Shown here: piece by piece, positions 532 through 41,739 of the stretch
Numbering within the stretch: the stretch's first letter is position 1
Layout of the letters: each line of letters opens with the position of its first letter
Assembly (NCBI GenBank): GCA_046726415.1
Contig: JBKPAK010000269.1
Span: 1-45,066 of the forward strand
Length of the DNA: 45,066 nt
Reading direction: 5' to 3'
Origin: Candidatus Methylomirabilota bacterium
GTDB taxonomy: Bacteria; Methylomirabilota; Methylomirabilia; Rokubacteriales; CSP1-6
Made by a program: the position numbers and the translations under genes
The notes under the pieces: generated by a model
Databases searched by the model: none
Told to the model about the DNA's origin: nothing
The model's input: the letters and a program-made list of their open reading frames with translations, nothing else

Positions 532-596
532 GCGTCAGGCGACAAGCTCGCCCAAAGCGTCATGCGACAAGCTCGCCCAAAGCGTCATGCGACAAG
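532..596. repeat. 25-bp tandem repeat, ~2.6 copies, overlapping the transporter stop codon
   Basis: GCGTCA(G/T)GCGACAAGCTCGCCCAAA at 532 and 557, partial copy at 582. Confidence 0.9.
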
Positions 597-1829
597 GAGC
601 AGGGTAACGACGGCGAACAAGGGGATGAGCACGAGGCCACTGTAGACCATGTAGCCGAAGAAGCTGGGCATCTTGACGCCCGATTCCTCGGCGATCGACT
701 TGACCATGAAGTTGGGAGCATTGCCGATATACGTGTTGGCGCCCATAGCCACCGCGCCCACGCTGATGGCCGCGAGGATGGCCGCGGGTACCCCCACGAC
801 CTCGTTGGCAAGTCCGAGGCCTTGGCCGAGGGCGAGAAACACGAGGTAGGTCGGCGCATTATCGAGGAACGACGAGAGCGCGCCGGTCGCCCAGAAGAAC
901 TGCCAGGGCTGGCGAACACCCAGTCCGGGCCCCCGCATGCGCAGCAACTCCAGCGCCGGAATCATGGTCAGGAAGATCCCGAAGAAGAGGACGGCAACCT
1001 CCACCATCGGATATGTCGTGAAGCCGTTGGCGCGCCTGATCTCTCGCGGCGTCGTCCAGAGCGAGACCCCGACCAGCGCCGTGATCAGGAGCTCTCTGAC
1101 GGGCGCCCGGAGGAACGCGACCGCGAGCACCACCCCGACCAGCCAGATAGCGTTGCTGCCCCCGTGCACTCGCAGGGGTTCGAGCCCTGTCCGGTCCCGG
1201 AGGATCGCCGCCATGGGTTCGCGCGCGTACTGGCTCGAGTCCCAGACGAGGTAGACGAGCAGCAGGGTACCGACCATCAGGAGCCAGTGTGGCCACAACC
1301 GAAAGGTCCACGCGAACGGCACGCCCTGCAGGTAGCCCAGGAACAACGGGGGATCGCCGAGGGGAGTCAGCATGCCGCCGATGTTCGACACGGTGAAAAT
1401 GAAGAAGACCACCGTGTGCTTCACCCGCGTTCGCTCCTGGTTGGTTTGCAGTAACGGGCGAATGAGAAGCATCGACGCGCCCGTGGTACCGACGAAGGAC
1501 GCCAGCACCGACCCGACGGCAAGGAAGCCGGTATTGGTGAGCGGCGTGGCCATCAGGTCGCCCCGAAGCAACACCCCACCCGAGATGACGTAGAGGCCGG
1601 CCAGCAGGATGATGAACGAGACGTATTCCTCGGCCATCGCCACCAGGGCGCCGGGTCGCCGCCTCAGGTAGACGCCGAGGATGGGCAGACCCAGGACACA
1701 GGCCACGAGCAGCTTGTTCCGGTTGCTCTCCCACCAGTGCGGCCGCCACAGCGGCAAGACCGCGATCGCCAGCAGCATGAGGACGAACGGCACCACCGCG
1801 TAGAGGGGCAGCGCAGATCCTGAAGGCAA
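585..1829 (-). CDS. IT-superfamily membrane transporter (putative Na+/H+ antiporter / CitMHS_2-like)
   Basis: Polytopic hydrophobic ORF with SNIGGMLTPLGDPPLFLG, SSFLDNAPTY and TYIGNAPNFMVKSIAE. Start moved to TTG 1829, which has GGAGAGG upstream. Confidence 0.8.
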   Translation of the reverse strand: MPSGSALPLYAVVPFVLMLLAIAVLPLWRPHWWESNRNKLLVACVLGLPILGVYLRRRPGALVAMAEEYVSFIILLAGLYVISGGVLLRGDLMATPLTNTGFLAVGSVLASFVGTTGASMLLIRPLLQTNQERTRVKHTVVFFIFTVSNIGGMLTPLGDPPLFLGYLQGVPFAWTFRLWPHWLLMVGTLLLVYLVWDSSQYAREPMAAILRDRTGLEPLRVHGGSNAIWLVGVVLAVAFLRAPVRELLITALVGVSLWTTPREIRRANGFTTYPMVEVAVLFFGIFLTMIPALELLRMRGPGLGVRQPWQFFWATGALSSFLDNAPTYLVFLALGQGLGLANEVVGVPAAILAAISVGAVAMGANTYIGNAPNFMVKSIAEESGVKMPSFFGYMVYSGLVLIPLFAVVTLLLVA

Positions 1830-1845
1830 GGCGTCCTCTCCGGGG

Positions 1846-4800
1846 CTACGCGTCGGAGAGGGGCAGAGTGATCCGGAAACAGGACCCGCGCCCCGGCGCG
1901 CTGCGGACGGTGACCGTGCCGCGATGGTGCTCGACGATCTCTCGGCTGATCGGCAGCCCAAGCCCCGCCCCTTCCGGCTTGGCGGTGAGCGTGTCCCCTA
2001 CTTGGCGAAAGCGCTCGAAGATGGCGTCCATCTGGTCAGGGAGGATCCCGACCCCGGTGTCCTCCACCTCGACGACGGCGCGGGCATCGTTGGTCAGTGT
2101 GCGCACCCACACCCGCCCGCCGCGGGGGGTGAACTTGGCGGCGTTGGAGAGGAGGTTGGTGAGGACCTGGATGATCTTGTCGCGATCGGCCAGGACCGGC
2201 ACGCGGTCCGGGACGGGCGACGCCTCGAGGTCGATCGCCTTATTGTCGAAGAGCGCGTGATTGGTCAGCACGGCCTGAGCCACCACTTCTCGAAGGTCGA
2301 GGCTCTCGATTCGCCACTCCATCTTGCCGGCCTCGATCTTCGACAGGTCGAGCAGCTGGTTGATCATGCGGGACAGACGCTGGCTCTCCTGGGTGATGAT
2401 GGCCAGGAACTGCTGCTGGCGCTCGCCGGGGATGTCGGCGCGACCTTCGAGCAGGCTCTCGGACAGCGAGCGGATGGCGGTGAGCGGCGTCCGCAGCTCG
2501 TGGGACACGGTGGACACGAAGTCGCTCTTGAGCCGGTCTAGCTCCGTGAGCCGCTGGTTCGCCTCTTCCAGCTCGGCCGTGCGCTGCCGCACCTTGACTT
2601 CCAGCTCGTGCGACAGATCCCCGAGCTCGCGGTAGAGCTGCGCATTCTGGATGCCCAGCCCGAGCTGGACGGCCAGCGTGCGGAAGAACTGGAGGAACTC
2701 CGGAGAAAAGTACACGCGGCCAGTGGACGAGTAGACCGAGAGCACGCCGATGGGCCGCTCCTCGACGGCGATGGGCGCGTGGACGAAAGAGCGGGGCTCC
2801 GGCGCCTCCGGCGCCGGGAAGACCACCGGCTTGCGGATCAGCGTCGCGTCCTCCACCACCAGCACGCGGTTGTCCACAAAGCACTCGCCGAAGTACGTGT
2901 CGCGCGAGAGTGGATCTCCGCGGGAGAGGTCGGTCTCGGGCGGCAGGCCCACGTGGCTCTTGATGCGCAGATGTTCGTCGGGATCCCGCAGCCGGATCGT
3001 AAGCACGTCGAACGCGAACTCCTGGCGCAGGAGCTGAACGACCCCGTCCATCATCTGTTGGGGATCCAGGGTGGAGGCGATCCGTCGGGTCGCCTCGTTG
3101 AGCAGGCTCAGCTCCCGCACCCGCCGTTGGAGATCCTCACGGCTCTGCTCCAGAGACTGCGACACCTTTCCGAAGACGTCGAAGATGGTTTCGAAGCGGG
3201 CGGTCGCCCCCTGCAGCGTCTCTAGAATGGCCTGGGCGGAAGCAGTTCCGACGGCCCCCGAAAGCGTGCGCTCGGTGAACTGGAGAAGCTCGCGCTGGTC
3301 GGCCTCGGTCAACGGCCGCCCGTCGGGGATGCCCCGGGAGTCAACGAAGCCGCGGAAGGCCTCCTGGGCCTTGTCGCGACCGACGAACTTGGCCACGAGC
3401 TCCTCGAGCCGCTCGGCGGTGAGGCCGTGGACGCCCACGGGCGTTGCCGCTCGGGCCCGTTCGCGCTCGAATACGCCCACGAAGCGCTCGGCCTGGGAGG
3501 TCTCGAGTGACAAGGGCCGCGTGTAGAGGGAGACCGCGGCAAAGGCGGCCACGTTGAAGGCGAGCGACCAGAAGACCGTATTTGACCAGAAGCCGATCCC
3601 GGTGACCCCGAAGAGTTGCTCGGGGCGGAGCCAGCCGATCCCGAAGGGCCCCTCCCGGATGAGGCTCTCGGGGACCCAGCCCGAGCGCACGAAGGAGGGC
3701 AGGAGCAGCGTATACGCCCAGATGCCGAAGCCGGCCGAGAGTCCGGCCAGCGCGCCCTGGCGCGTGGCCCGGCGCCAGTAGAGGCCGCCGAAGAAGGCGG
3801 GCGCGAACTGGGCCACCGCCGCGAACGAGATGAGGCCGATATTCACCAGCGTGTACGACTCGCCGATCAGGTGGTAGTACGCGTAGCCCAGCAGAATGAT
3901 CACGGCGATGGCCAGCCGCTTGGCGTTGATGAGGAGCCCAGAGATGTCGCGGGTCATGCCGCGGCGGACGAGCGAGGGGACGACCAGGTTGTTGAGGATC
4001 ATCGTCGACAGCGCAATGGACTCGACGATCACCATGCCTGTCGCCGCCGAGATCCCACCGATGAACGCGAACAGGGCCAGGCCCTGCTGATGCTGGGCCA
4101 TCGGCAGCGTCAGCACGAAGTAGTCGGCGGCGGTCACCGGCGCGCCGGGAAAGATCAGCACTCCCCCGAAGGCGATGGGAAGCACGAAGACATTGATGAG
4201 GAGCAGGTACACAGGGAACATCCACATCGCGGTCTTGATGTGGCCCTCGCGCGTGTTGCCGATGACGGCCATGTGAAACTGGCGCGGCAGGAACAGGATG
4301 GCCATCATCGAGAGCCAGGTGAGGGCCGCCCAGTCGCCATACGAGAACACGGGGTCGCCGCCGAGCATGCGGGCGTACTCGGGACGCTGGGCCGCGCGTC
4401 CGAAGATGTCGGCGAAGCCGCCGAAGACCCCGTAGGTGACGAACACCCCTACGGCCAGAAACGCGAGCAGCTTCACCAGCGACTCGAAGGCGATGGTGGC
4501 CACCAGTCCCTCGTGCCGACGCGAGGAGTCGAGGTCGCGCGCGCCGAACATGATCCCGAAGGCGATCAGCAGCACGGCCGTCCCGAAGGCGGTGTCGGCC
4601 CAGAACGGCCGGCTCGCCGACGCCGGCAGCGTGGTGGTGACGGCTGGGTATTGCAGAAGGACCTCAAAGGTCTGGGAGATCGCCTTGAGCTGCAGCGCGA
4701 TGTAGGGGGTAATGCCGACTACGGTAATGACCGCCACCACGCCGCCGAGAAGTGTGGACTGGCCGTAGCGGGAGCCGAGGAAGTCGGCGATGGAGGTGAT

Positions 4801-5094
4801 GTTGTTGGCCTTGGCGATGCGAACGGTCTTGCGGAGCACCCACCACCATCCGACGGCCATGAGCGTAGGGCCGAGGTAGATCGGCAGAAACCCCACGCCG
4901 GAGGCCACCGCCCGCCCCACGCTCCCGTAGAAGGTCCAGGAGGTGCAGTACACCGCCAGGGAGAGCGAGTAGATGACGGGGCTGTCAATAAGGCTCGTCC
5001 CCTCGCGCGCCCGCCGGTCGACGTAGTACGCGATGGCGAACAGGCCGAGCACGTACGCGAAGGCGACGCTGGCGATGCTCCAGGCGGTCAGCAC
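1846..5094 (-). CDS. SLC5(SSS)-STAC-GAF sensor histidine kinase (CrbS/CbrA-like), HK1
   Basis: N-terminal YSLSLAVYCTSWTFYGSVG and LPRQFH SSS domain; STAC-like ERTLSGAVGTASA; GAF; SHELRTPL H-box; NLLSNAAKF, DTGVGI and GAGLGL boxes. Confidence 0.92.
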   Translation of the reverse strand: MLTAWSIASVAFAYVLGLFAIAYYVDRRAREGTSLIDSPVIYSLSLAVYCTSWTFYGSVGRAVASGVGFLPIYLGPTLMAVGWWWVLRKTVRIAKANNITSIADFLGSRYGQSTLLGGVVAVITVVGITPYIALQLKAISQTFEVLLQYPAVTTTLPASASRPFWADTAFGTAVLLIAFGIMFGARDLDSSRRHEGLVATIAFESLVKLLAFLAVGVFVTYGVFGGFADIFGRAAQRPEYARMLGGDPVFSYGDWAALTWLSMMAILFLPRQFHMAVIGNTREGHIKTAMWMFPVYLLLINVFVLPIAFGGVLIFPGAPVTAADYFVLTLPMAQHQQGLALFAFIGGISAATGMVIVESIALSTMILNNLVVPSLVRRGMTRDISGLLINAKRLAIAVIILLGYAYYHLIGESYTLVNIGLISFAAVAQFAPAFFGGLYWRRATRQGALAGLSAGFGIWAYTLLLPSFVRSGWVPESLIREGPFGIGWLRPEQLFGVTGIGFWSNTVFWSLAFNVAAFAAVSLYTRPLSLETSQAERFVGVFERERARAATPVGVHGLTAERLEELVAKFVGRDKAQEAFRGFVDSRGIPDGRPLTEADQRELLQFTERTLSGAVGTASAQAILETLQGATARFETIFDVFGKVSQSLEQSREDLQRRVRELSLLNEATRRIASTLDPQQMMDGVVQLLRQEFAFDVLTIRLRDPDEHLRIKSHVGLPPETDLSRGDPLSRDTYFGECFVDNRVLVVEDATLIRKPVVFPAPEAPEPRSFVHAPIAVEERPIGVLSVYSSTGRVYFSPEFLQFFRTLAVQLGLGIQNAQLYRELGDLSHELEVKVRQRTAELEEANQRLTELDRLKSDFVSTVSHELRTPLTAIRSLSESLLEGRADIPGERQQQFLAIITQESQRLSRMINQLLDLSKIEAGKMEWRIESLDLREVVAQAVLTNHALFDNKAIDLEASPVPDRVPVLADRDKIIQVLTNLLSNAAKFTPRGGRVWVRTLTNDARAVVEVEDTGVGILPDQMDAIFERFRQVGDTLTAKPEGAGLGLPISREIVEHHRGTVTVRSAPGRGSCFRITLPLSDA

Positions 5095-5098
5095 CGGC

Positions 5099-5299
5099 TC
5101 ACCCCTCGTCGTCCCACGAGGCCCGGGCGAGGACGAACACGGCCACGATGCCCGCGCACCAGGCGCCGAAAAGGTAGAGGTAGAGGATGGGGATGCCCGC
5201 CAGGGTCGCGCCGCGGTTGAAGATCGCCAGCACCGGGAAGTTGAGCAGGAGCGCGCCCATGACGAACAGGAGGGCGAGCTTGCCGCCGACGCCGCTCAG
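5099..5299 (-). CDS. Small 2-TM membrane protein preceding HK1 (paralog of 17595..17795)
   Basis: Hand translation: (M)SGVGGKLALLFVMGALLLNFPVLAIFNRGATLAGIPILYLYLFGAWCAGIVAVFVLARASWDDEG*. CTG start overlaps the upstream TGA with GGAGG 7 nt before it; alternative ATG at 5260. Not in the ORF track. Confidence 0.8.
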   Translation of the reverse strand: MSGVGGKLALLFVMGALLLNFPVLAIFNRGATLAGIPILYLYLFGAWCAGIVAVFVLARASWDDEG

Positions 5300-7479
5300 G
5301 GGGCCGCCTCCGCCTGATCGCGGGCCGGACGCCCGGGACCGGGACGGGCCCGACGCGTTGCCTCCAAGGCCTGTCCGAGGGTGGCGATCTGGCGCTTGTG
5401 GAGCAGGGGCAAGAGGCGGACGAGGACATCGGCAGTCGCCAGGGCGTCACCGAGGGCGGAGTGCCGGCCATGGACGGTGACGCCAAGGCGGCCGGCTGCC
5501 GCGTCCAGCTCGTGGCCAGGCAGGGGGCCATGGACAACCGAGCTGAGGGACAGGGTGTCGAGAACGGGGTGTGATGCCGTGAGCGATGGGAGGCCCAGGC
5601 GTCTGGCCTCGCGCTCGAGAAAGCGGAGGTCGAACCAGACTTGGTGCCCCACCAGGACCGCGCCCTCGGCGAAGACCAGGAACGCCGGGAGCACGACATC
5701 GATCTTGGGCCTGTTCGCGACCATATCGTCCGTGATCCCATGGAAGCGGCTACTGCCGGGCGGAATAGGCCGCGCGGGGTTGACGAGCGCGTCGAACGTC
5801 TCGCCCCGCTTCACGACGCCACGCCGCACGCGAACGGCCCCCAGCGAGACGATATGGTCGCGGTCCGGATCGAGACCCGTCGTCTCGGTATCGAGCACGA
5901 CGCAATCGAGCTGGTCCAGGACCCGGGCACGGTCGTCGGGCCTCAGGTGCCGCTCCATGTCGTCGAGAAGCGAGAAATCATAGAAGTCAGGTCGCGCGGC
6001 CTTTCCCTCGCCACTCCCCGCGGCCGAGACGGTGCCGGCGCCCGCGAACGCGAGCCTCCTGCCCTGACCGTGGCGCGGGTCTTCCGCGGCAGCAGACACG
6101 GGCAGGCTCAGCGCGAACCCGAGCCGGGGCGGGTCGGCGTACGCCCACACTTCTCCGGAATGGCGCTGGGCGATCTCGCGGACGGAGACCGCCGTGACAC
6201 CGGTACCCGGGGGCGTCTCGAGGACCGCCTCGAGCTCCTCGACGTCACCGTGGCCGACGCTGCCGACATCGATCTGGACGACGCCACCCCGTGGCGTCGA
6301 GCGCAGCCAGACGGCCGTGTCCGGCCCTACTCGGGCCGCGACCGCGGTGACCAAGTAGGCGATCGCGCCGCTCAGTTGGGAGGCCTCGACCCGGATAGGG
6401 CACGCGGGTTGCGGACCTTGGTCACTGTCCACGCGCCCGGCCGGCAAGTCACGCTGGGCGAGCCGCCGCAAGGCCATCGCCGTCAGGTCGGCCACCGTGA
6501 CTTCCTCGAAATGCCAGGGCGGCTCGCCGAGCCCCAGCGACCCGGGCCCGGTGACCGCGCGCAGGAGCCCGGAGAGCCGAACCGCTTCCGCATGAATCGC
6601 GCCGACGAGGCGGCTGGCGGGGTCACCGAGGTCGGCCCGGTCGGCCATGAGGCTTTCGGAAAGAGAGCGGATCGAGGCCAGGGGGCCACGGAAGTCCCGG
6701 AGGGCGTCGGTCAGGCGCCGCCGGCGCATCTCATCGAGGCGGGCCGGGGAGGTGACGTCGCGCAGGACGAGGACGAACCCCACGAGCCGCTCGTCGTCGA
6801 AAAAGGGCGTCATCACCGTGTCGAGGACAGCCTCGCCGCCAGGATGGAGACGAAACCGCTCGGCGCTGCCGCCTGTCGTCCGCAGGCGCTCCTGGTAGTA
6901 CGTGACCTTCTCGCGGTCCACGACCTCGAAGAGATTGCGTCCCAGCAGGCTCGCTCCGCCCGTGGCCAGGCGCTCCTGGGCCTCGCGATTGGCCAGCGTC
7001 ACGCGGCCCTCGGGCGCGGTCACCACCACAGCTTCGCCGAGCGTTTCCAGAACGGCAGACAGCTTCGACCGCTCGACGGTAAGCTCGTGAGTGGCTCGGA
7101 TCACCTCGGCCTCGAGTCCCGTGCGAGCCTCTTGCACCCGGTCAGCCATCCGGTTGATCTCCGCGGCCAGCGCCTCTAACTCGTCGCCGGTGTGGACGTC
7201 GAGGCGGTGCTGGAAGTTCACCGTCGCCATTAGCTCGGTGCCGAGCTGGATCTGTTGCAGCGTGCGCACGAGCGAGCGGCCGATCGTGTGCGCGATGACG
7301 CCGAGGTAGGTCATCATCGCGGCGAACCCGACGGCGACGGTTATGACGAGCCCGAAAGGGTCCTGGAAGATCCCGCGGCGGTAAAGCGCGAGCAGGATCA
7401 GCCCGCCGGCCAACGCCGGCACGAGGAATAGGAGGAGGACGCCGTGGACGAGTTTACGCTCGAGACGGGAGGACCGCAC
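5296..7479 (-). CDS. Membrane HAMP-PAS-pseudo-histidine-kinase fused to a DnaQ-like DEDDh 3'-5' exonuclease domain
   Basis: Two TM helices, HAMP (GDELEALAAEINRMA), PAS, His-less DHp (LRDFRGPLASIRSLSESL), eroded HATPase; C-terminal VLDTETTGL, GHQVWFD, LDTL, HSALGDA. Confidence 0.85.
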   Translation of the reverse strand: MRSSRLERKLVHGVLLLFLVPALAGGLILLALYRRGIFQDPFGLVITVAVGFAAMMTYLGVIAHTIGRSLVRTLQQIQLGTELMATVNFQHRLDVHTGDELEALAAEINRMADRVQEARTGLEAEVIRATHELTVERSKLSAVLETLGEAVVVTAPEGRVTLANREAQERLATGGASLLGRNLFEVVDREKVTYYQERLRTTGGSAERFRLHPGGEAVLDTVMTPFFDDERLVGFVLVLRDVTSPARLDEMRRRRLTDALRDFRGPLASIRSLSESLMADRADLGDPASRLVGAIHAEAVRLSGLLRAVTGPGSLGLGEPPWHFEEVTVADLTAMALRRLAQRDLPAGRVDSDQGPQPACPIRVEASQLSGAIAYLVTAVAARVGPDTAVWLRSTPRGGVVQIDVGSVGHGDVEELEAVLETPPGTGVTAVSVREIAQRHSGEVWAYADPPRLGFALSLPVSAAAEDPRHGQGRRLAFAGAGTVSAAGSGEGKAARPDFYDFSLLDDMERHLRPDDRARVLDQLDCVVLDTETTGLDPDRDHIVSLGAVRVRRGVVKRGETFDALVNPARPIPPGSSRFHGITDDMVANRPKIDVVLPAFLVFAEGAVLVGHQVWFDLRFLEREARRLGLPSLTASHPVLDTLSLSSVVHGPLPGHELDAAAGRLGVTVHGRHSALGDALATADVLVRLLPLLHKRQIATLGQALEATRRARPGPGRPARDQAEAAP

Positions 7480-7828
7480 GGATCGCCTCCAAGATCTCGG
7501 CGTTCCCGAACGGCTTGGTCACGTAGGCCGCCGCCCCCAGCTCGAGGCCCTTCATCACCTCGACCTCCTGTCCCTTGGCGCTCAACATGATTACGGGGAC
7601 GTCCCACAGGTCGGGGTCGGCCTTAATGGCGCGGCACACGTCGTGGCCGTTGATTCTCGGGAGCATCACGTCGAGCAGGACGACGTCAGGGTGCAGGCGC
7701 CGGACCTGGGCGAGCCCATCCTCCCCGTCGACGGCCGCAGCCGTCTCGTAGCCCGCGCGCTGGAGCAGGAACTCCAGCGACAGTACGATGTGCGGCTCGT
7801 CCTCGACGATGAGCACCTTGCGCTTCAC
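7454..7828 (-). CDS. Single-domain response regulator (receiver only)
   Basis: VEDE, LLDVMLP, MLSAK and TKPF receiver motifs all intact; 124 aa. Confidence 0.93.
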   Translation of the reverse strand: MKRKVLIVEDEPHIVLSLEFLLQRAGYETAAAVDGEDGLAQVRRLHPDVVLLDVMLPRINGHDVCRAIKADPDLWDVPVIMLSAKGQEVEVMKGLELGAAAYVTKPFGNAEILEAIRAVLPSRA

Positions 7829-7835
7829 CGGCGCC

Positions 7836-9389
7836 TCACGGCCCGCCCATTATAGTCCCGGCCGCATAGAACCCCAGCGAAAGCCCGGTGAGCCCCAGCC
7901 CCGTGAGGTGGGGCACAAAATCCGTGGCAAAGCGATAGCGGATGCGCTGCTGCACCCAGCCGACCGTCTTCAGCGCTTCCCGCAACAGCAGCCGATCGGT
8001 GTGCGACAGGCGATCGGGATCGATGAAGTTGTCGGGCGTCTCGCTGGCCTCGATCTGCTCCAGCTGGTGCAGAAGGCGGAGGCGCATCAGGTGCTGGCAG
8101 GTGTCGGTGATCTCGCGCGTCTCGGCCTCTGAGTAGACCCCGTGTTGACCGGCCGCCCGGAAGCGATCGACAGTGTTCGTCTCGGGCAACCCCAGCTCGA
8201 GCGTGTGCAGACGGCCCGTTCCTACCAGCTGAAGGGCCCCCGCCCCCTTGATGTCCACCCGCCCGCGCTGGGGGCCGCTCCGATGGACGGCGACGTTGCC
8301 AAACATCGTGCGCGGCACCCGCCGGGACACGACGTCGACGGCGAGGAGCTCCAGGAACACCCTGCGGGTCGGCGCCTCCGCACGGATCAGCTGGATGAGC
8401 GGGGCGACGAGATCGCTGGCGCCGCCCACCGGGCGGAGGTCGAAGTAGATGCAGGCGGCCAGGACGTGGTGCCGAGAAATCTCGTGCATCCAGCGCTGGA
8501 GGTATGCGGTCCACACCGAGAGCGGCTGGCACCACTGCGGGTTCGAGGCCATGGCGCCGGCTGGGCACGGCGGATAGCCAAGGGTCATGAGCCCGCGGAT
8601 GGCGTCCTGGGCCAGACGCGCGTAGTATGCGGCGGCGCGCTCGCGGAGATGCGGTGGCGGATCGGCGTAGACCAGGCCGTTGTCCTGATCGGTCCGAAGC
8701 GTCTGCTCGCGTCTGGCCTCGCTGCCGAAGCTCAACCAGCAATAGGCCACGGGCGGGGCATCCTCACCGGACTCCTCGAGGGTGCCGGCCGCCAAGCCGA
8801 GCACGCGGACGACGACGCGGTCATTGAGCTCGGAGATGAGCTGCCCGATGTCGTACGCCGTCCCCCCTTGATCGACGAGCTGGCGGGTGAGATCGGTGAT
8901 CCGTGCGCCCAGCGCGGCGAGGGCCTCCAACGAAGCGGCCCGAGTGATTTCTCGGGCGAGCAGCACGGGATGGAGGCTCTGGGCCAGGACGAAGTCGTAC
9001 ATCGAGACGACACCCACGAGCCGCCCGTCTTCCATGACCACCAGATGCCTGATGTCCCGGCGGGTCATCTCGAGAATCGCCTCGAAGGCGAAGGCCGCGG
9101 GTGAGATCGTCGCCAGCGGTGAAGACATGATGTCGGCCGCATGGGTGATGACGGGATCGCGCGCCTCGGCCACCACCTTGCGCCGCAGGTCGCGGTCGGT
9201 GACGATCCCGAGCGGGCTCTCGTCGTCGTCGACCACGATCACGGAGCCGACATGCTGACGCGACAGGAGCCGGGCAATCTCCTGGACGGACATCTGGACC
9301 CCACACGTCACGGGCGACCGCTCCAGGAGGTTTCCCACCCGGTGCAGGAAGAGCGACCGCTCGCCGGTCCACGACGCGCGCTCGCTCAC
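7836..9389 (-). CDS. CBS-pair + DUF294 nucleotidyltransferase-like + DUF294_C protein
   Basis: CBS motifs (GIVTDRDL, IRHLVV); FGSEARREQTLRTDQDN nucleotidyltransferase motif; CPAGAMASNP; YFDLR; DIKGAG. Confidence 0.9.
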   Translation of the reverse strand: MSERASWTGERSLFLHRVGNLLERSPVTCGVQMSVQEIARLLSRQHVGSVIVVDDDESPLGIVTDRDLRRKVVAEARDPVITHAADIMSSPLATISPAAFAFEAILEMTRRDIRHLVVMEDGRLVGVVSMYDFVLAQSLHPVLLAREITRAASLEALAALGARITDLTRQLVDQGGTAYDIGQLISELNDRVVVRVLGLAAGTLEESGEDAPPVAYCWLSFGSEARREQTLRTDQDNGLVYADPPPHLRERAAAYYARLAQDAIRGLMTLGYPPCPAGAMASNPQWCQPLSVWTAYLQRWMHEISRHHVLAACIYFDLRPVGGASDLVAPLIQLIRAEAPTRRVFLELLAVDVVSRRVPRTMFGNVAVHRSGPQRGRVDIKGAGALQLVGTGRLHTLELGLPETNTVDRFRAAGQHGVYSEAETREITDTCQHLMRLRLLHQLEQIEASETPDNFIDPDRLSHTDRLLLREALKTVGWVQQRIRYRFATDFVPHLTGLGLTGLSLGFYAAGTIMGGP

Positions 9390-9410
9390 ACCGAAGCCCG
9401 CGGCCTGCTC

Positions 9411-9752
9411 TCAGTGACCCCCAAGCAGCGCCGCGCACTTCGCCTTGACGTCGTCCGAGGACTTGCAGTCCTTGACGTAGTTGACGAAGGCCCCCAGTGG
9501 GGTCGCATCGGCCCTGCCCTCGGCCACGCCCTCGGTCAGCCTCGCCATCGCCGCCTTGCCAGCCACGCTGTCGAGATCACAGGCGACGACCCTCTCCCCC
9601 GCACCCCACCACTTGGTCTTCTCAATCGTGAGGTGGCCGCCCTTGAAGCCGCCCTTGTCGTGGTTGACGATCAGCTTCTCGCCACTGTCGAGGGTGAGCT
9701 GGCAGTACGCGCCCGCCTTGGGATCAACCACGAATCTGCCGACCTTGGCCAT
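9411..9752 (-). CDS. Hypothetical 113-aa soluble protein, paralog 1 of a four-Cys family
   Basis: AAGGAGG RBS before ATG 9752; aligns by eye with ORFs at 44424..44779 and 44791..45066. Confidence 0.85.
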   Translation of the reverse strand: MAKVGRFVVDPKAGAYCQLTLDSGEKLIVNHDKGGFKGGHLTIEKTKWWGAGERVVACDLDSVAGKAAMARLTEGVAEGRADATPLGAFVNYVKDCKSSDDVKAKCAALLGGH

Positions 9753-9840
9753 CGCATCCTCCTTCCGAGAAGGCGGCGTTGCGCCGGACGACGCTTCGGT
9801 CTCTCCCATAGTCTAGCTGAAGCCCACGGTGGCGATGGAT

Positions 9841-10263
9841 TCACGGTCGGGCGTCGCGCTTGCCGAAGACGGCGCGGGCGACGATCGCCACCGAGCCGAG
9901 CACATTCGTCAGCGCCGTGAGCACCAGCGAGAGCAGCGTCAGGGTCATGATCGGAGCAAGCAGGGGCCGGAGGCCGGCCTTCGGCGGGAGCTGGGTGTCG
10001 AGCCAGAACAAGGGCATGAGGACGAGGATCGGGATCGCGAGGATCACGAGCACCAGCCCGCCGGCGGCCCGTCCCGCCCGGCTCAGGAGCTCGAGTCGCC
10101 GGTGCCGGGCTTCCGTCCGCACCCACATGGTGGTCACCAGAATGAGCAGGACCAGCAAACACGCGAGGAACACCGGCTGGGGCATGAGATTGGCACCGGC
10201 CACCGCGTACAGCACGCCGAACAGGACGACGCCCACCGTGTTGGCGGCCGCCAGGGCCAGCAC
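9841..10263 (-). CDS. Hypothetical 4-TM membrane protein
   Basis: Four hydrophobic stretches; tightly spaced in the actP operon. Confidence 0.65.
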   Translation of the reverse strand: MLALAAANTVGVVLFGVLYAVAGANLMPQPVFLACLLVLLILVTTMWVRTEARHRRLELLSRAGRAAGGLVLVILAIPILVLMPLFWLDTQLPPKAGLRPLLAPIMTLTLLSLVLTALTNVLGSVAIVARAVFGKRDARP

Positions 10264-10269
10264 GGCGCC

Positions 10270-10572
10270 TCAGCCAGCGCGTCCACCCGCGACTTGGTGC
10301 AGCACGGCGCGGGCCACGATCCAGAGGAGCATGTAGACGGCGAGGGAGATCGTCCGCACGCGGGGCTCGGGGGTCCCGGACGGCAGGACTGAGCGGATGG
10401 GGCGCGTGAGTGGGCCCGTGACGACAGCGAAGAACCACAGCACCGGGCTGTCGGCACGCCCGATCACACGCGCGACGATGATGTGGAGCAGCAAGTACAC
10501 CCACGCCATGAAGAGGAGCAGCGGTACCACGACGTTGAGGAGAAGCAGCAGCCGGACCCAGGGCTCATCCAT
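10270..10572 (-). CDS. YggT-like small membrane protein
   Basis: SPVLWFFAVVTGPLTRPIRSVLP resembles the YggT P..FL..lT.P.L.PiR..lP motif. Confidence 0.6.
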   Translation of the reverse strand: MDEPWVRLLLLLNVVVPLLLFMAWVYLLLHIIVARVIGRADSPVLWFFAVVTGPLTRPIRSVLPSGTPEPRVRTISLAVYMLLWIVARAVLHQVAGGRAG

Positions 10573-10632
10573 TCGGCAACGATGGCTTCGGGCGGAGGCA
10601 CCGGGCCCCCGCCCGCGGTTCGAAGCCTTGGC

Positions 10633-12567
10633 CTAATGGACCGGTACTTCCTTGAGGTCCCGACCGAGTGGGTCACCCGTGACCGCCTGCCCGGACCTCG
10701 GGTAACGCACGCTGGCCACGAGATCCTGTACCTCCTGCGGCGGCGGGGCCGTGAGGAGCGAAACGATCCATATGACGAGGAACCCGATGGGCAGCCCGAA
10801 GATCGCCGAGGCGATCGTCTGCGTGCCGAACCAGGAGACGCCATAGAAGCGGCTGCCGATCAGATAGTACGTCGTCACCGCGAGGCCAGCGATCATTCCC
10901 CACACTGCACCCTGTTTGTTGGCACGCTTCCACCAGATTCCCATGACCAGCGCCGGGAAGAACGAGGCGCCGGCCAGGCTGAAGGCCCATGCCACCAGCT
11001 CGGCGATGACGGCAAACCGGAACGTCGCCGTGTAGGCCGAGATGATCGCCGTGATCACGAGCAGCACCTTGGTGATGGTGAGCCGCTTGACCAGCGAAGC
11101 GCTCGGATCAATGACGTTGTAGTAGAGGTCATGCGAGATGGCGTTGGCGATCGTCAGCAGCAGGCCGTCAGCCGTGGACAGCGCGGCCGCCAGCCCTCCC
11201 GCCATCACGAGGCCGGTGATGACGAACGGCAACCCCGCCACCTCGGGCATCGACAGCACCACGAAGTCGGTTGACCGCACGACGAAGTCGGCCCACTGGA
11301 CGATGCCGTCGCCGTTCTTGTCGACCACTGTGAAGAGCCCCGCCGGTTGCCAGAACTTCACCCAGCCCGGCAAGTCGCTGATCTTTGCCCCCACGAGCTT
11401 GGTGAACACGGCGAAGCGAGCAAACGCTGCGTAGGCGGGAGCCGTGAAGTAGAGGAGGAAGATGAAGAAGAGCGACCAGGCCACCGAGGTGCGAGCCTCC
11501 TTCACCGATGGCGTCGTGTAGTACCGGGTCAGGATGTGCGGGAGCCCGGCGGTGCCAACCATCAGGCAGAACGTCAGGGCCAGGAAGTTCCACATGCCAG
11601 TGCCGGTAGGAACGGTGAGGGTGTTGCCGAAGCGCGCCGTGTCGCTCGAGGCAAGCGGGCGAGCCTGGGCGAGCGCCGTCCGCTGCTGGGCCTGTAGCTT
11701 CTCGACCTCGGCCTCGGGCAGTCCGCCGGCCTTGATCTTCGTGGCGATCTCGTCCGCGTCCTTCTTCCAGAGGGCCCGCGTCTCTTTCTCCTTCGGGTCG
11801 GCGGTGAGCCGAATCTCCGTCGCGTTGTTCTCCTGGAGGAGCTGGCCATAGGTCAGTTCGGGAATGGGGAGGGTGAACAGCGTCCAGGACAGGTACACGA
11901 CCGGCACCAGGTAAGAGATGATCAGGATGATGTACTGCGCCACCTGGGTCCAGGTGACCGACTTCATGCCGCCGAGCACCGAACAGAAGAGGACGCCGAC
12001 GAGGCCGACGAAGACGCCGATGTTGTAGTCAATGCCGATGAAGCGGGCCACGATGAGCCCCACCCCTGTGACCTGCGCGGTGAGGTAGGTGAACGAGCAG
12101 ATGATGGCGCCGACCACGCCGACGACCCGTGCCGTGTTCCCGCCATACCGAGCGCCGAGGAAATCCGGAATGGTGTAGGCCCCGAACTGTCGGAGGTACG
12201 GCCCCAGCAGCACGGCCAGCAGCAGATAGCCGCCGGTCCATCCCATGACGTACCCGAGACCAAAGAACCCCAGAGCCGAGATGAGTCCGGCCATCGAGAT
12301 GAATGACGCGGCCGACATCCAGTCCGACCCCGTGGCCATGCCGTTGTAGACGGAGGGCACGCCCCGGCCGGCGACGTAGTACTGGTCGGGGTTCGAGGTC
12401 CGAGTGAGGACGCCGATGACCACGTAGATCGCCAGCGACAATGCCATAAAGATCCAGCCGATCATCTGGTTGCTGAAGATCCCGATCCATTCCCCGATGC
12501 CGATGAGGACGGTGACGCCGAGGAAGCAGATCGTGTAGAGGCCGAAGATCTTGTCCAGGCTCATCAT
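10633..12567 (-). CDS. actP: Cation/acetate symporter ActP-like (sodium:solute symporter, VC_2705 type)
   Basis: YYVAGR, NGMATGSDWMSAASF, TWTQVAQY, GTAGLPHIL, GGLAAALSTADGLL; preceded by a DUF4212 gene. Substrate cannot be established from sequence. Confidence 0.88.
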   Translation of the reverse strand: MMSLDKIFGLYTICFLGVTVLIGIGEWIGIFSNQMIGWIFMALSLAIYVVIGVLTRTSNPDQYYVAGRGVPSVYNGMATGSDWMSAASFISMAGLISALGFFGLGYVMGWTGGYLLLAVLLGPYLRQFGAYTIPDFLGARYGGNTARVVGVVGAIICSFTYLTAQVTGVGLIVARFIGIDYNIGVFVGLVGVLFCSVLGGMKSVTWTQVAQYIILIISYLVPVVYLSWTLFTLPIPELTYGQLLQENNATEIRLTADPKEKETRALWKKDADEIATKIKAGGLPEAEVEKLQAQQRTALAQARPLASSDTARFGNTLTVPTGTGMWNFLALTFCLMVGTAGLPHILTRYYTTPSVKEARTSVAWSLFFIFLLYFTAPAYAAFARFAVFTKLVGAKISDLPGWVKFWQPAGLFTVVDKNGDGIVQWADFVVRSTDFVVLSMPEVAGLPFVITGLVMAGGLAAALSTADGLLLTIANAISHDLYYNVIDPSASLVKRLTITKVLLVITAIISAYTATFRFAVIAELVAWAFSLAGASFFPALVMGIWWKRANKQGAVWGMIAGLAVTTYYLIGSRFYGVSWFGTQTIASAIFGLPIGFLVIWIVSLLTAPPPQEVQDLVASVRYPRSGQAVTGDPLGRDLKEVPVH

Positions 12568-12573
12568 GGCGGG

Positions 12574-12843
12574 CTAGCCCTCCTCGCGGATGCCGTACTC
12601 GAGATCCTTTCGGTTCATCAAGTAGGCGTAGACGGCGATCTCGACGACGAAGATGGCCAGCGAGCCCTGAGCCGCCATGTAGTAGCCGAGCGGAAAGCCG
12701 AGGAAGCTATAGTTGTTCAGCCACGAGGCCATCACCCCGGAGATGACGTACGTCACCACGAACCAGATGGCCAGCAGTACGGTAGTGAGCCACGCGTTGT
12801 ACCGCCAGTACTCCTGCTTCTGCCGCTCTGTCAGGTCGGCCAT
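12574..12843 (-). CDS. DUF4212 small membrane partner of the symporter
   Basis: MADLTERQKQEYWRYN...LAIWFVVTY...GFPLGYYMAAQGS; GAAGGGGG RBS; ATG 12843. Confidence 0.88.
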   Translation of the reverse strand: MADLTERQKQEYWRYNAWLTTVLLAIWFVVTYVISGVMASWLNNYSFLGFPLGYYMAAQGSLAIFVVEIAVYAYLMNRKDLEYGIREEG

Positions 12844-12922
12844 AGGTCCCCCTTCAGGCCTGAACCGCGTTGTTCGTTCCCGTAGCGGTGCTCGCCGACG
12901 CCTTGCCATCCGCCACGCGCAA

Positions 12923-12939
12923 TGCAGGTAACGTGCCGG
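12923..12939 (-). promoter_or_regulatory. Putative sigma54 -24/-12 promoter of DUF4212-actP
   Basis: Minus strand CCGGCACGTTACCTGCA = GG-N10-GC; lies just downstream of a sigma54 activator gene. Confidence 0.6.
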
Positions 12940-13000
12940 CATCGAGAGGTGCCAACTGCTGGAAATATCAGGCGCTGGGAAGCGGACGCGAACGACGTTA

Positions 13001-13027
13001 TTGGTACTGGAACCAAACGGCTTTGGT
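13001..13027. promoter_or_regulatory. Overlapping inverted repeats, candidate activator binding site (UAS)
   Basis: TTGGT-N6-ACCAA (13001-13016) overlaps ACCAAA-N4-TTTGGT (13012-13027); AT-rich in a GC-rich context. Confidence 0.4.
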
Positions 13028-13031
13028 ATCG

Positions 13032-14450
13032 CTACCGTGACGCATCGCGCTGCGGGCCAGCGCCAGATTCTCCGCTGTCAGGCGAAACCGCCTTGCGCAT
13101 GCCATAGCGCACGAGCTTCTCGGAGAAGTTCTTCGGGTCCATATCCGCATGCTTGGCGGCGGCGGTCAGCTTGCCGCCGCTGGCCTCGAGCACCCCGCCG
13201 ATATAGGCGCGCTCGAATTCCTCCACCACGCGCGCCTTGGCGTCGCGGAAGGATAGCGAGAGGTCCACTCCGGGGCGGCCGCTCTCCGGTCCGAGGAAGC
13301 GCTCGACTTCTACGATCGTGTCCACGCGGGCCAGGATCACACCGCGCTCGATGACGTTTTCCAGTTCGCGGACGTTGCCCGGCCAGCCATAACGGCAGAG
13401 AGCCTGCATCGCCTCAGGAGCGATATCTCGCACCGGCTTCTTCGAGCGACGGGCGCTTTCCTTGAGGAAGTGGCGCGCCAGAAGGGGCACGTCTCCTTCG
13501 CGCTCCCGGAGCGGCGGCACCCTGATGGGCATCACGCTCAGACGGTAGAAGAGGTCGGGCCGGAAGGCGTTCCGCTCGACCTCGGCGCGTAGGTCCTTGT
13601 TGGTGGTGGCGATGAAGCGGACATCGATCTCCACCGCCCGATCCGAACCAATCGGCGTGACGCATTTGTCCTCGATGACGCGCAGGAGCTTCGACTGCAG
13701 CCCGAGGGGCATCTCCCCGATCTCGTCGAGGAGCAGGGTGCCCCCACTGGCGCTCTGCAGAAGGCCCCGCCGGGTCTCGGCAGCGCCCGTGAAGGCGCCC
13801 TTGCGAAAGCCGAACAGTTCGGATTCGAACAGGTCGGTGGGGATGGCTGCGCAGTTGACGGGCACGAAGGGCTTGTCCCGGCGCGCGCCCGAGAAGTGGA
13901 CCGATCGCGCCAGCAGTTCCTTGCCCACCCCCGTCTCCCCGTGGATGAGCAGGGTCGTGTCGAGATCCGCTACTGAGCGGAGGACCTCGAAGACCTCGCG
14001 CATGGCCGCGCTCTGGGCCAGGGCGTTCTTGAGCGTAAAGCGCTCTTGGTTGTGCCTGAGGGTGGCCCGGCTGGCCGCGCGCAACTCGTGGAACTCGATG
14101 GCGTGACGGAGGACGATGAGCAGTTCCGCCGTGTCGAAGGGCTTCACGAGGTAGTTGGCGGCGCCCAGCCGCATGGCCTCCACCGCGGACTCAATGGTGC
14201 CGTAGGCGGTCATCATGACCACCGCCACATCGGGATGATCGGTCTTGATCCGCCGAACCAGCTCCACGCCGTCCATCCCGGGGAGCCGCTTGTCGGTCAT
14301 CACGACGTCGACGTCCTCGCGCTTCAGCGCGTCGACGGCATCCTCGCCGCTCGACAGGGCGAGCACCTCAAAGCCCGCCACCTCCAGGGTGCGCCGAAGC
14401 GGGCGCAGGAAAATCTCGTCGTCCTCGACGATCATCACACGGCGCTTCAT
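13032..14450 (-). CDS. Sigma54-dependent response regulator (NtrC/AtoC family), EBP1
   Basis: Receiver, GETGVGKE, ESELFG, GAFTGA, LDEIGE, WPGNVRELEN, C-terminal HTH. Confidence 0.95.
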   Translation of the reverse strand: MKRRVMIVEDDEIFLRPLRRTLEVAGFEVLALSSGEDAVDALKREDVDVVMTDKRLPGMDGVELVRRIKTDHPDVAVVMMTAYGTIESAVEAMRLGAANYLVKPFDTAELLIVLRHAIEFHELRAASRATLRHNQERFTLKNALAQSAAMREVFEVLRSVADLDTTLLIHGETGVGKELLARSVHFSGARRDKPFVPVNCAAIPTDLFESELFGFRKGAFTGAAETRRGLLQSASGGTLLLDEIGEMPLGLQSKLLRVIEDKCVTPIGSDRAVEIDVRFIATTNKDLRAEVERNAFRPDLFYRLSVMPIRVPPLREREGDVPLLARHFLKESARRSKKPVRDIAPEAMQALCRYGWPGNVRELENVIERGVILARVDTIVEVERFLGPESGRPGVDLSLSFRDAKARVVEEFERAYIGGVLEASGGKLTAAAKHADMDPKNFSEKLVRYGMRKAVSPDSGESGAGPQRDASR

Positions 14451-14465
14451 GACGACCTCCTTTGA

Positions 14466-14577
14466 CTGGAGGGGGCCTGGGCCCCCTCCAGACCTCCCCG
14501 TTTGCGCGAGGTGCTACCCCCCAACCTCCCCGTTTGCGCGAGGTGCTACACCGAACCTCCCCAGTTGCGCGGAGGGG
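14466..14577. repeat. REP-like hairpin followed by three ~31-32-bp tandem hairpin units
   Basis: CTGGAGGGGGC-CTGG-GCCCCCTCCAG (14466-14491), then ACCTCCCCGTTTGCGCGAGGTGCTAC at 14492 and 14524, and a variant at 14555. Confidence 0.8.
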
Positions 14578-14628
14578 CGACACGCGCCTTCGCGATACCG
14601 GGCCCTCTTCGATTCTCCGACATGCCCC

Positions 14629-26447: not shown

Positions 26448-26466
26448 GAGCGCCTCGCGCGATCGC

Positions 26467-36701: not shown

Positions 36702-37064
36702 CACGTCCGTCCTCCCTCCGTTTGGCCAGAACCGAATGGCTCGAGTGTTCCTCGTGAGCAGCGCCCCACCAAACATATTGTCATGTTCCGATGTCCTGGG
36801 GCGCTCGCTTGCTCCCGCACCGTCCAGCGGACCGCGGCCACCAGCTCCGTCACGCCGATCGGCTTCCGCAGGGCGACCGAGGCGCCCAGAGGACGGCCCG
36901 CCTGCAGAACGCGCCCACTGCTTGGAGTCGACGATCAAGACCTTTGCCACGCAGACTCCTACCTCGCGGCCCAGCCTGGTGCAGGACAAATGCCATTGAG
37001 CCGCGCAGGGTGCGCCCGTGGTTACCATGATGCCATCCGCGCGGCCTGCTCGTCACCGAGCCGC

Positions 37065-38810: not shown

Positions 38811-39249
38811 GAGGGGGGAATATACGCGAAGGGCCAGTCCAGCAAAACATCGCCATGTCTCCCGGCCCGAATTACCACGCTGGCTCGAAACGCCCGGTGC
38901 GTCCTTCCGGCCGGGGCGACCGCGTGGGACGCTCGGGCGATGCTGGGTGCCGAGGGCTCGGAAGCGCCGCGCTACGGCAAGCGGCAGAACCCCTGGGCTT
39001 CCACCCCGAGCGCGACGTTGAACTTGCTGCGGTTGTCGGAGACGTGAAGAAGGTCGCAATGATGCGGTTGGCCAGTTGCAGAGGGTGGCAGGAAGTAGCA
39101 TGACCTGCCACCTATCTGCCACTAACCCATGGCTCCATCGGCCAACAGTGCCCGTTGGCGGGATCCGCGTGCAGTCCTTGGCCGCGGCCGCCCGCCCCAT
39201 GAAGCGACCGCGGCAGAGAGGCGTCGTGGCGGGGTCGTCAGCGGCGAAA

Positions 39250-41734: not shown

Positions 41735-41739
41735 GGCTC

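Follow-up and report, generated by a model that had tools for sequence, protein, structure and literature searches.

A DUF294 nucleotidyltransferase beside a pseudokinase-fused DEDDh exonuclease: a candidate write/erase nucleotidylation module in Methylomirabilota

We analyzed a 45,066-nucleotide stretch of DNA from Candidatus Methylomirabilota bacterium (contig JBKPAK010000269.1, assembly GCA_046726415.1; hereafter, the window), whose minus strand encodes a CBS-DUF294 nucleotidyltransferase, a single-domain receiver, and a membrane-anchored sensor protein that ends in a DEDDh exonuclease domain, together with a histidine kinase fused to an SLC5-like membrane domain and a sodium/solute symporter (Table 1). 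We found that the DUF294 transferase and the DEDDh exonuclease form a real and widespread pair, and that the form of the exonuclease present here carries a dead kinase core that is co-inherited with a receiver gene. The best explanation for this arrangement, which we put forward tentatively, is a two-enzyme module for writing and erasing nucleotidylation in which a phosphorelay controls the eraser. The core pair is known but uncharacterized, and the idea of protein modification is already in print.

DUF294 transferases and their hydrolase partners

Within the phylum, we searched 151 genomes with the whole exonuclease protein and fetched 20 loci. A DUF294 gene is present in 19 of these loci and lies directly upstream of the exonuclease gene in 18; the receiver gene alone separates the two in L034, L035, and the window. 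A profile of the transferase core matched 34 of the 151 genomes, and PF00929, the family of the exonuclease domain, matched 43. Both were found in 32 genomes (one of which, G101, is unpublished), DUF294 alone in 2, the exonuclease alone in 11, and neither in 106, which places PF00929 in 32 of the 34 DUF294-positive genomes versus 11 of the 117 DUF294-negative ones. Four of the 11 exonuclease-only matches are strong; G107 and G148 lie at contig ends, and G124 and G071 stand alone without DUF294.

For a survey across phyla, the 80 best DUF294 loci were collected from species-representative genomes with a 20-sequence query alignment, and these include Thermodesulfobacteriota, Nitrospirota, Acidobacteriota, Chloroflexota, Verrucomicrobiota, Bacillota, and others. 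The exonuclease gene lies directly downstream on the same strand in 48 of the 80 loci and elsewhere in the locus in 12, counts that, like those within the phylum, cover related genomes and are not independent events. The original prediction stated that DUF294 proteins recur with DnaQ-like exonucleases near actP and proposed a survey of such neighborhoods. With 60 of the 80 loci and 32 of the 34 genomes paired, the two enzymes do co-occur in other genomes, and the pairing half of that claim stands (adjacent in 18/20 and 48/80 loci). The symporter half holds less well beyond the phylum, since a window-like symporter was found in 17 of the 20 phylum loci versus 28 of the 80 loci outside.

Neighbors varied among the 18 exonuclease-less loci that we scanned, with an acetyl-CoA synthetase gene in L122. 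In two loci without an exonuclease, the gene beside DUF294 encodes a GAF-HD-GYP-type protein (L128:3988-5661) or a calcineurin-like metallophosphoesterase (L131:9441-10166), and these may be further alternative partners of DUF294.

Two DUF294 genes in the same orientation, separated by 0.5-2.8 kb, occur in six loci from Nitrospirota and Desulfomonilaceae (L064, L075, L076, L077, L083, and L088). In these loci the exonuclease gene follows the second copy only (in L083, the contig ends 100 bases past that copy), and another gene lies between the two copies in L064 and L083.

The exonuclease domain of the window retains its DEDDh residues (D530, E532, D617, H673, and D678), which are invariant in 107 full-length homologs and kept in distant long forms. 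It matches the exonuclease of PolC (2p1j) with an E of 1.7e-27, DnaQ structures are matched too, and the best database names of the protein are 'DNA polymerase III subunit epsilon', while DnaQ equivalog models score 95-96 bits on it (cut-offs of 196-223). As the protein is also the sole PF00929 match in its 98%-complete genome, one might suppose that it serves the cell as a DnaQ-type nuclease for proofreading or repair and stands beside the transferase by chance. However, this exonuclease sits on a protein with two transmembrane (TM) segments, a HAMP domain, a PAS domain, and a dead kinase core, and both its presence and its position follow DUF294 in the proportions given above. Since 108 of the 151 phylum genomes have no PF00929 match, the phylum is not dependent on the exonuclease, and it seems to do without a DnaQ-type proofreading subunit. 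A housekeeping proofreader is thus excluded for practical purposes, in keeping with the original view that the protein does not serve DNA proofreading, and we give the chance-neighbor reading next to no weight.

We also considered a role in anti-phage defense or as a toxin-antitoxin system, along the lines of MNT-HEPN or CBASS. Two PADLOC models, DEDDh (Cas-associated) and PDC-S48, match the exonuclease domain, and a single Pfam clan unites DUF294_C with HEPN, KNTase_C, and the helical domains of GlnD and GlnE (PMC3710099). On the other hand, DUF294 matches no PADLOC model, and the HEPN survey gives no Rx4-6H motif for DUF294_C (PMC3710099). The neighborhood is metabolic (symporter, acetyl-CoA synthetase [Acs], and two-component systems) and conserved vertically within the phylum, and the counterpart pair in Pseudomonas, described below, is induced by acetate/propionate regulators (PMC9765439, 10.64898/2026.09.07.749794). 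A defense role is very improbable, and the matches in its favor go no further than generic DEDDh-type models.

In the transferase, we could read the intact GS-x10-DxD motif that had been claimed, as G222-S223-x10-D234-Q-D236, with D317 as a third acidic residue. Across 138 homologs, G222, R226, and D317 are invariant, and S223, D234, Q235, and D236 are each kept in at least 90%. Both halves of the catalytic region, which mark the COG2905-type signal-transduction nucleotidyltransferases, pass their Pfam cut-offs of 21 (DUF294, PF03445) and 22.5 (DUF294_C, PF10335). The window transferase is 517 amino acids long and has the CBS pair only, with no cNMP-binding domain; most DUF294 representatives are 600-680 amino acids long with 130-180 extra N-terminal residues, and a cNMP-binding domain was found in that extra region in all three proteins of this length that were scanned. 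DUF294 relatives form 1754 sequence clusters at E ≤ 1e-30. The lengths of the best 150 of these 1754 representatives suggest no DUF294-RNase_T fusion, a search for longer DUF294 fusions returned two proteins, neither with an exonuclease domain, and a Protein Atlas lookup with a 64%-identical homolog returned DUF294 clusters only.

Against solved structures, a single-sequence search with the transferase found CBS-domain chains only, and a 59-sequence profile of its core matched nothing (best E 0.46). The host's own GlnD, which has NTase, GlnD_UR_UTase, and HD domains, matches the PF03445 DUF294 model at 29 bits, and hhalign aligns the catalytic cores of the two with an E of 1e-4 and a probability of 58% over 75 columns. 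Pfam found neither PF08335 nor PF03710 (GlnD_UR_UTase and GlnE), the domains of the enzymes that act on PII or glutamine synthetase, in the window transferase. The link is weak, though in line with the GlnD/GlnE kinship asserted at the outset, and by these comparisons the protein-nucleotidylating enzymes GlnD and GlnE appear to be the nearest characterized relatives of the DUF294 transferase.

One of the two DUF294-only genomes of the phylum (G059, without PF00929) encodes DUF485, an ActP-type SSF transporter (325 bits), and a 1243-amino-acid fusion protein with the layout PHP-sCache_2-PAS-CBS-CBS-DUF294-DUF294_C. Its PHP domain has the usual His/Asp metal ligands and matches CV1693 (2yb1; E 3.9e-23) and RNase AM (7ug9, '5'-3' exoribonuclease'; E 2e-22). 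A search with the PHP region gave 532 clusters of 683-2176 amino acids at E ≤ 1e-5, and PF02811 and PF03445 were both present in 117 of the best 120 of these 532 matches. RNase AM degrades oligo- and diribonucleotides in the 5'-3' direction, acting on 5'-phosphorylated oligonucleotides and on pAp, and in P. aeruginosa it and the DEDDh enzyme Orn can substitute for each other as diribonucleases (PMC11528712); FAD caps are also removed by RNase AM (PMC9410882). Judged by these architectures, the DEDDh and PHP folds seem to be interchangeable as partners of DUF294, and the transferase appears to travel nearly always with a nucleotide-releasing hydrolase of either unrelated fold. Because the two folds replace each other as diribonucleases and seemingly also as DUF294 partners, the partner would be expected to hydrolyze a nucleotide phosphodiester made by the transferase, which we regard as our strongest comparative argument. 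The same argument leaves a free or RNA-linked nucleotide product equally open, because the studied members of both hydrolase families cut nucleic acids or short oligonucleotides.

A free product would make the locus a system of nucleotide-messenger turnover. DUF294 would then make a free di- or oligonucleotide, linear or cyclic, or a conjugate of a nucleotide with a metabolite, that signals carbon or energy state, and the exonuclease or PHP domain would degrade this signal in the way that EAL or HD-GYP enzymes accompany GGDEF enzymes, with the phosphorelay setting its lifetime. Degradation of short oligonucleotides by the studied members of both hydrolase families fits this (RNase AM and Orn are diribonucleases, PMC11528712, and the likeness of PHP to RNase AM has an E of about 1e-23), and the fusion of synthase and hydrolase in 117 of the 120 PHP matches listed resembles second-messenger enzymes. 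Also in its favor, a conserved acceptor gene was not found among the DUF294 neighbors in the 80 loci, the cNMP-binding domain in three DUF294 proteins of usual length means that nucleotide ligands already occur in the family, and some exonuclease-less DUF294 genes adjoin an HD-GYP-type (L128) or metallophosphoesterase (L131) gene. However, the nearest characterized relatives among nucleotidyltransferases are the protein-modifying GlnD and GlnE rather than CD-NTases or cyclases, no receptor or effector is evident in the conserved neighborhood, and degradation of a soluble messenger needs no membrane-tethered hydrolase. We take messenger turnover seriously, although on balance we consider it doubtful.

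An RNA-linked product would mean that DUF294 adds untemplated nucleotides to the 3' end of a specific RNA (tRNA, small RNA, or mRNA) and that the exonuclease trims them, tuning the expression of carboxylate-utilization genes. CCA-adding enzymes and poly(A) polymerases are members of the Pol-beta-fold superfamily, and nucleic-acid exonucleases are the enzymes that the exonuclease domain resembles most. RNase T-like processing of RNA or DNA has been raised for PP_0353 of Pseudomonas (preprint 10.64898/2026.09.07.749794). However, there is no Rfam family and no tRNA in the window, DUF294 matches no solved RNA nucleotidyltransferase, even by profile, and a membrane anchor with a receiver-controlled pseudokinase would be unusual for an RNA-processing enzyme. 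Tailing and trimming becomes less likely still because a 5'-3' PHP nuclease, which would not trim a 3' tail, can replace the 3'-5' exonuclease, and we judge it a serious alternative but quite unlikely overall.

The pseudokinase sensor, its receiver, and its kinase

The exonuclease protein begins with two TM segments (residues 14-32 and about 43-66). The loop between them is only about 10 residues long, so the protein has no periplasmic sensor domain, and its membrane part may instead sense cues from inside the membrane or from membrane proteins that act as its partners. Between the PAS and exonuclease domains lies a kinase core (residues of about 245-470) that resembles the core of the neighboring SLC5-GAF kinase (BLASTP E 7e-14). 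HisKA scores 19.8 bits on this protein, below its cut-off of 26.9, and Pfam does not match HATPase_c. At the position of the kinase's phospho-acceptor His865, the exonuclease protein has Arg261, and its N, G1, and G2 boxes have degenerated. The core is therefore a pseudokinase, as its first label, 'pseudoHK', had it. In 107 homologs, the Arg261 column holds Arg in 68, Gln in 9, Leu in 9, and His in 6; members of other phyla have Thr, Lys, Arg, or Gly, and His is kept in one relative (G099). The pseudokinase DivL (4q20) matches residues 246-450 with an E of 1.3e-4.

On the other hand, the proteins that would feed this core have their catalytic residues. The receiver has a complete acceptor pocket (E9/D10, D53, S83, and K105), and the SLC5-GAF kinase has H865 and all of the N, G1, and G2 boxes. 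The N-terminus of this kinase matches SSF and has at least 11 hydrophobic segments, and the protein is 44% identical to the upstream SLC5-PAS kinase over 660 residues, including a linker of about 110 residues that follows the SLC5 domain, where the STAC domain of the originally named 'SLC5-STAC kinase' would lie.

Exonuclease genes come in three grades, which we took from locus maps rather than from stop-to-stop open reading frame (ORF) labels. The exonuclease stands alone (about 200-260 amino acids), is fused to TM-HAMP-PAS (about 490 amino acids; seven phylum loci), or is fused to TM-HAMP-PAS and the dead kinase core (about 675-860 amino acids). Besides the window, this long form was found in three further genomes of the phylum, in Nitrospira (L089), Acidobacteriota (L114), and Binatia (L054, with a divergent middle), and in seven Desulfobacterales-type loci (L103, L109, L110, and L115-L118). 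A receiver gene adjoins 12 of the 14 long-form exonuclease genes versus none of the 67 short-form genes, which lends indirect support to the two-component wiring of the exonuclease that the original prediction proposed. Receivers beside the long exonuclease genes of other phyla have 34-50% identity.

An SLC5-type kinase of the downstream kind lies in the same locus for 7 of the 14 long forms, and in the four phylum loci and L089 it comes with a small hydrophobic ORF. The receiver, the dead-kinase exonuclease, and the SLC5 kinase are also found in at least four other phyla. Within the window, the pseudokinase core scores 62 bits against the adjacent SLC5-GAF kinase and 32 bits against the upstream SLC5-PAS kinase, and so is nearer to the former. 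The first DHp helix of kinases holds the residues for partner specificity, and in this phylum that helix of the exonuclease protein is nearly identical to that of the SLC5-GAF kinase.

In a tree of the exonuclease domain, rooted at its midpoint only, all of the sensor-fused forms make up one clade (support 99/95). One subclade holds nine long forms of other phyla, eight of them with an adjoining receiver gene (99/97), and another holds Methylomirabilota and Binatia (99/96). In the latter, the forms with HAMP-PAS only are sister to a weakly supported group (84/41) made up of the four full long forms (99/90), L054, and the stand-alone exonuclease of L042. The simplest reading of this topology would be a single origin of the sensor fusion, with the dead kinase core and the receiver lost jointly thereafter.

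Carboxylate context and gene layout

ORFs within 5 kb of DUF294 were clustered across the 80 cross-phylum loci, and several of the resulting clusters are antisense shadow ORFs. Besides the short exonuclease (49/80 loci) and the long exonuclease (9/80), the recurring neighbors are an SSF transporter (33/80), acetyl-CoA synthetase (26/80), a receiver (18/80), DUF4212 (14/80), and the SLC5 kinase (8/80). Since SSF transporters, acetyl-CoA synthetase, and DUF4212 recur near DUF294, we take the process concerned to be the uptake and activation of short-chain carboxylates. The three Acs genes of this genome sit on other contigs.

The source assembly is 7.6 Mb, the G+C content of the window is 64-71%, and the named close homologs of its proteins belong to Methylomirabilota/Rokuibacteriota. 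We annotated the window proteins with Pfam and NCBIfam and read hydropathy from the sequences. From 585 to 17598, every real gene lies on the minus strand with short intergenic gaps (Table 1). ORFs and Pfam bear out the minus-strand gene set and domains that had been described between 1846 and 12843, and the latter coordinate agrees with the internal Met at which the conserved part of the DUF4212 ORF begins. The name 'DUF4212-actP' given to the two symporter genes fits in its first half only. DUF4212 is confirmed, but the large subunit scores 139 bits against the ActP equivalog TIGR02711 (cut-off of 1099), and its small subunit is DUF4212, whereas the partner of ActP is DUF485/YjcH. Because TIGR03648 reaches 726 bits, we call this symporter ActP-like rather than ActP.

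Table 1. Genes of the minus-strand cluster in the window, in order of transcription
Coordinates	Strand	Feature	Basis
14629-17598	minus	SLC5-linker-PAS-HisKA-HATPase_c kinase, CbrA/CrbS-type layout (context)	Pfam; alignment with downstream kinase
13032-14450	minus	NtrC-type sigma-54-dependent response regulator (context)	Pfam REC, Sigma54_activat, HTH_8
12574-12843 (ORF open to 12942)	minus	DUF4212 small membrane subunit of sodium/solute symporter	PF13937 99 bits; TIGR03647 88 bits
10633-12567	minus	VC_2705-family sodium/solute symporter, large subunit	PF00474 176 bits; TIGR03648 726 bits
9841-10263	minus	140-aa membrane protein without a family, about four hydrophobic segments	hydropathy
9411-9809	minus	132-aa soluble protein without a family	ORF
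7836-9389	minus	CBS-CBS-DUF294-DUF294_C nucleotidyltransferase, proposed writer	Pfam DUF294 153 bits, DUF294_C 127 bits
7454-7828	minus	Single-domain receiver	PF00072 103 bits
5296-7479	minus	TM-TM-HAMP-PAS-pseudokinase (DHp and degenerate CA)-DEDDh exonuclease, proposed eraser	Pfam; RNase_T 129 bits
5099-5260	minus	53-aa hydrophobic ORF directly upstream of the SLC5-GAF kinase	ORF
1846-5094	minus	SLC5-like membrane domain-linker-GAF-HisKA-HATPase_c kinase, proposed receiver kinase	Pfam
585-1961	minus	CitMHS_2 transporter, after the SLC5-GAF kinase	Pfam, 503 bits

Genes that the original prediction did not mention are the two without a family, between the symporter and DUF294, and the upstream pair of a paralogous SLC5-PAS kinase and an NtrC-type regulator. 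The 140- and 132-amino-acid proteins gave no Pfam, NCBIfam, or PADLOC match. Within the phylum, the gene of the former is kept at the same position in 10 of the 20 loci and homologs of the latter (57-69% identity) were found in 7 of the 20; tblastn gave no match to either gene in the 80 loci from other phyla. The 53-amino-acid ORF has no Pfam or NCBIfam match, and its homologs occur in L034-L036 of the phylum and beside the Nitrospira kinase in L089. Because a homolog is present in 8 of the 20 related phylum loci, the CitMHS_2 gene may belong to the same unit. The best NCBIfam match of the NtrC-type regulator is AtoC (405 bits, under its cut-off).

A sigma-54-like GG-N10-GC site with two mismatches lies at 12923-12938 on the minus strand, 79 nt upstream of the likely DUF4212 start, and sites like it were found in 6 of 15 related loci, which makes it only a lead. 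Sigma-54-like motifs number 17 in the window versus 14.8 expected and are not above chance, and neither sigma-70 promoters nor terminators in the window exceed shuffled sequences. Among the sequencing runs listed for 5296-9389 none is of RNA; the 24 listed are probably DNA, and most are labeled soil metagenome.

Other genes on the minus strand of the window lie outside this cluster. An ACT-domain malic enzyme gene (17820-19238), directly upstream of the SLC5-PAS kinase, fits the carboxylate theme. A second two-component pair (22054-26600) consists of a 1065-amino-acid kinase with three GAF domains, PAS, HisKA, and HATPase_c and an NtrC-type sigma-54 activator. Two slightly overlapping adjacent ORFs at 37022-39287 cover PF00082 profile positions 1-92 and 140-267 and look like a split or frameshifted subtilase gene. 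A flotillin-like FloA gene (512 bits) is paired with an NfeD membrane protease-like gene at 40757-43161.

Proposed mechanism and known systems

In the write/erase module that we propose, the CBS-gated DUF294 writer would attach a nucleoside monophosphate (NMP), or a short run of NMP, to an acceptor through a phosphodiester, and the DEDDh exonuclease domain would hydrolyze this bond and release 5'-NMP. The acceptor would most likely belong to short-chain carboxylate uptake or activation, such as the symporter, acetyl-CoA synthetase, or their regulator, and ActP is one candidate among several. The SLC5-linker-GAF kinase would sense the transported solute and phosphorylate the receiver, which in its phosphorylated state would dock on the dead kinase core of the exonuclease protein, as DivK~P does on DivL, and so activate or inhibit the exonuclease. 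A second input would come through the membrane, HAMP, and PAS portion of the exonuclease protein. The fully specified version of this scheme, in which the relay ends at an enzyme whose DEDDh domain (elsewhere a PHP domain) strips AMP or UMP that DUF294 has written onto a carboxylate uptake or activation protein, is in our view unlikely to be right in every part.

Several observations weigh against the proposed module. With respect to chemistry, the closest studied relatives of the exonuclease (PolC exonuclease, DnaQ, DinG, and Cas2-DEDDh) cut DNA or RNA, and we know of no DEDDh enzyme that removes NMP from a protein. The known substrates of RNase AM-type PHP enzymes, namely 5'-phosphorylated oligonucleotides and pAp, are no less compatible with an oligonucleotide product than with a protein adduct, and the GlnD alignment is weak at 58% probability over 75 columns. 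With respect to gene content, no acceptor is encoded consistently, as the window-like symporter is absent from 52 of the 80 loci, and 20 of the 80 DUF294 loci have no nearby exonuclease (2 of these end less than 100 bases from DUF294). The relay is incomplete in five Desulfobacterales loci, which have the receiver and the long exonuclease and no SLC5 kinase in the stretch examined, and the likeness of the DHp helices fails in the Nitrospira and Acidobacteriota loci. Our literature search, which did not extend to supplementary files, found no biochemical result for any family member and no publication that joins DUF294 with an exonuclease or a DEDDh domain with a pseudokinase; COG2905 and an exonuclease are named together only in a comparative-genomics paper on Burkholderia multivorans, each a single time. 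Deleting the Pseudomonas pair leads to only mild growth defects on propionate and pyruvate (preprint 10.64898/2026.09.07.749794).

The system is of interest for several reasons. The acetate-switch two-component system of Pseudomonas exerts some of its strongest control on this pair, and the genomic surroundings suggest that what is being regulated is the uptake and activation of short-chain carboxylates. The use of a hydrolase of two unrelated folds narrows the chemistry to the making and breaking of a nucleotide phosphodiester. In one clade the hydrolase has its own receiver and kinase, which predicts both interaction partners and a switch open to in vitro assay. With a protein as acceptor, the module would represent a new reversible modification cycle and give the DEDDh fold a new role; with a small nucleotide instead, it would amount to a new messenger system.

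One parallel in logic is GlnD. Both GlnD/GlnE and the window transferase have a G-[SG]-x-x-R-x-E...D-x-D core followed by a helical domain of the KNTase_C clan, sensor domains are present on both (ACT in GlnD and CBS in the window transferase), and in both cases the transferase is coupled to a metal-dependent hydrolase, which is HD in GlnD and DEDDh or PHP with DUF294. Unlike in GlnD, the hydrolase of DUF294 has another fold and, in this locus, is a separate protein. By analogy, the logic that we propose for DUF294 would be the same as that of GlnD, with a sensor-gated transferase joined to a hydrolase that removes the added group.

The regulatory half resembles the DivL-DivK pair, in which a kinase core without a phospho-acceptor His is likewise partnered with a single-domain receiver. 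DivL has Tyr in place of this His, and the exonuclease protein has Arg. Unlike DivL, the window pseudokinase is fused to an enzymatic output, the exonuclease, and has lost its ATP-binding boxes. DivL binds DivK~P through its regulator-docking face and is without kinase and phosphatase activity (PMC4211667).

The PHP-sCache_2-PAS-CBS-DUF294 fusions of Acidobacteriota, Armatimonadota, Chloroflexota, and one genome of the class of this phylum are alike in having the same transferase core near DUF485/SSF transporter genes and a nucleotide-releasing hydrolase. They differ from the window in that the hydrolase is of the RNase AM-type PHP kind and acts in cis, and in that the transferase receives a periplasmic Cache input with no phosphorelay.

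The regulator near the window is of the NtrC type, whereas CrbR/ErdR is of the LuxR type. In Pseudomonas, the direct or strong targets of CrbS/CrbR (MxtR/ErdR) include PP_0353/PP_0354 of P. putida/alloputida KT2440, PA3232/PA3233 of P. aeruginosa, and Pflu5625 of P. fluorescens (PMC5715377, PMC9765439, 10.64898/2026.09.07.749794), and PP_0353/PP_0354 is the strongest MxtR/ErdR target (preprint 10.64898/2026.09.07.749794). Protein modification has already been suggested for the transferase (PMC5715377, preprint 10.64898/2026.09.07.749794). Matched by published description rather than by sequence alignment, PP_0353/PP_0354 is like the window in that it pairs CBS-DUF294 with an RNase_T-type exonuclease, is linked to monocarboxylate transport and acetyl-CoA synthetase, and has an SLC5-type kinase nearby. 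In contrast to that pair, the window transferase has no cNMP-binding domain and the window exonuclease is preceded by TM-HAMP-PAS and a dead kinase core in one polypeptide. The window further adds a dedicated receiver, the 53-amino-acid membrane ORF, and a second SLC5 kinase, the SLC5-GAF kinase.

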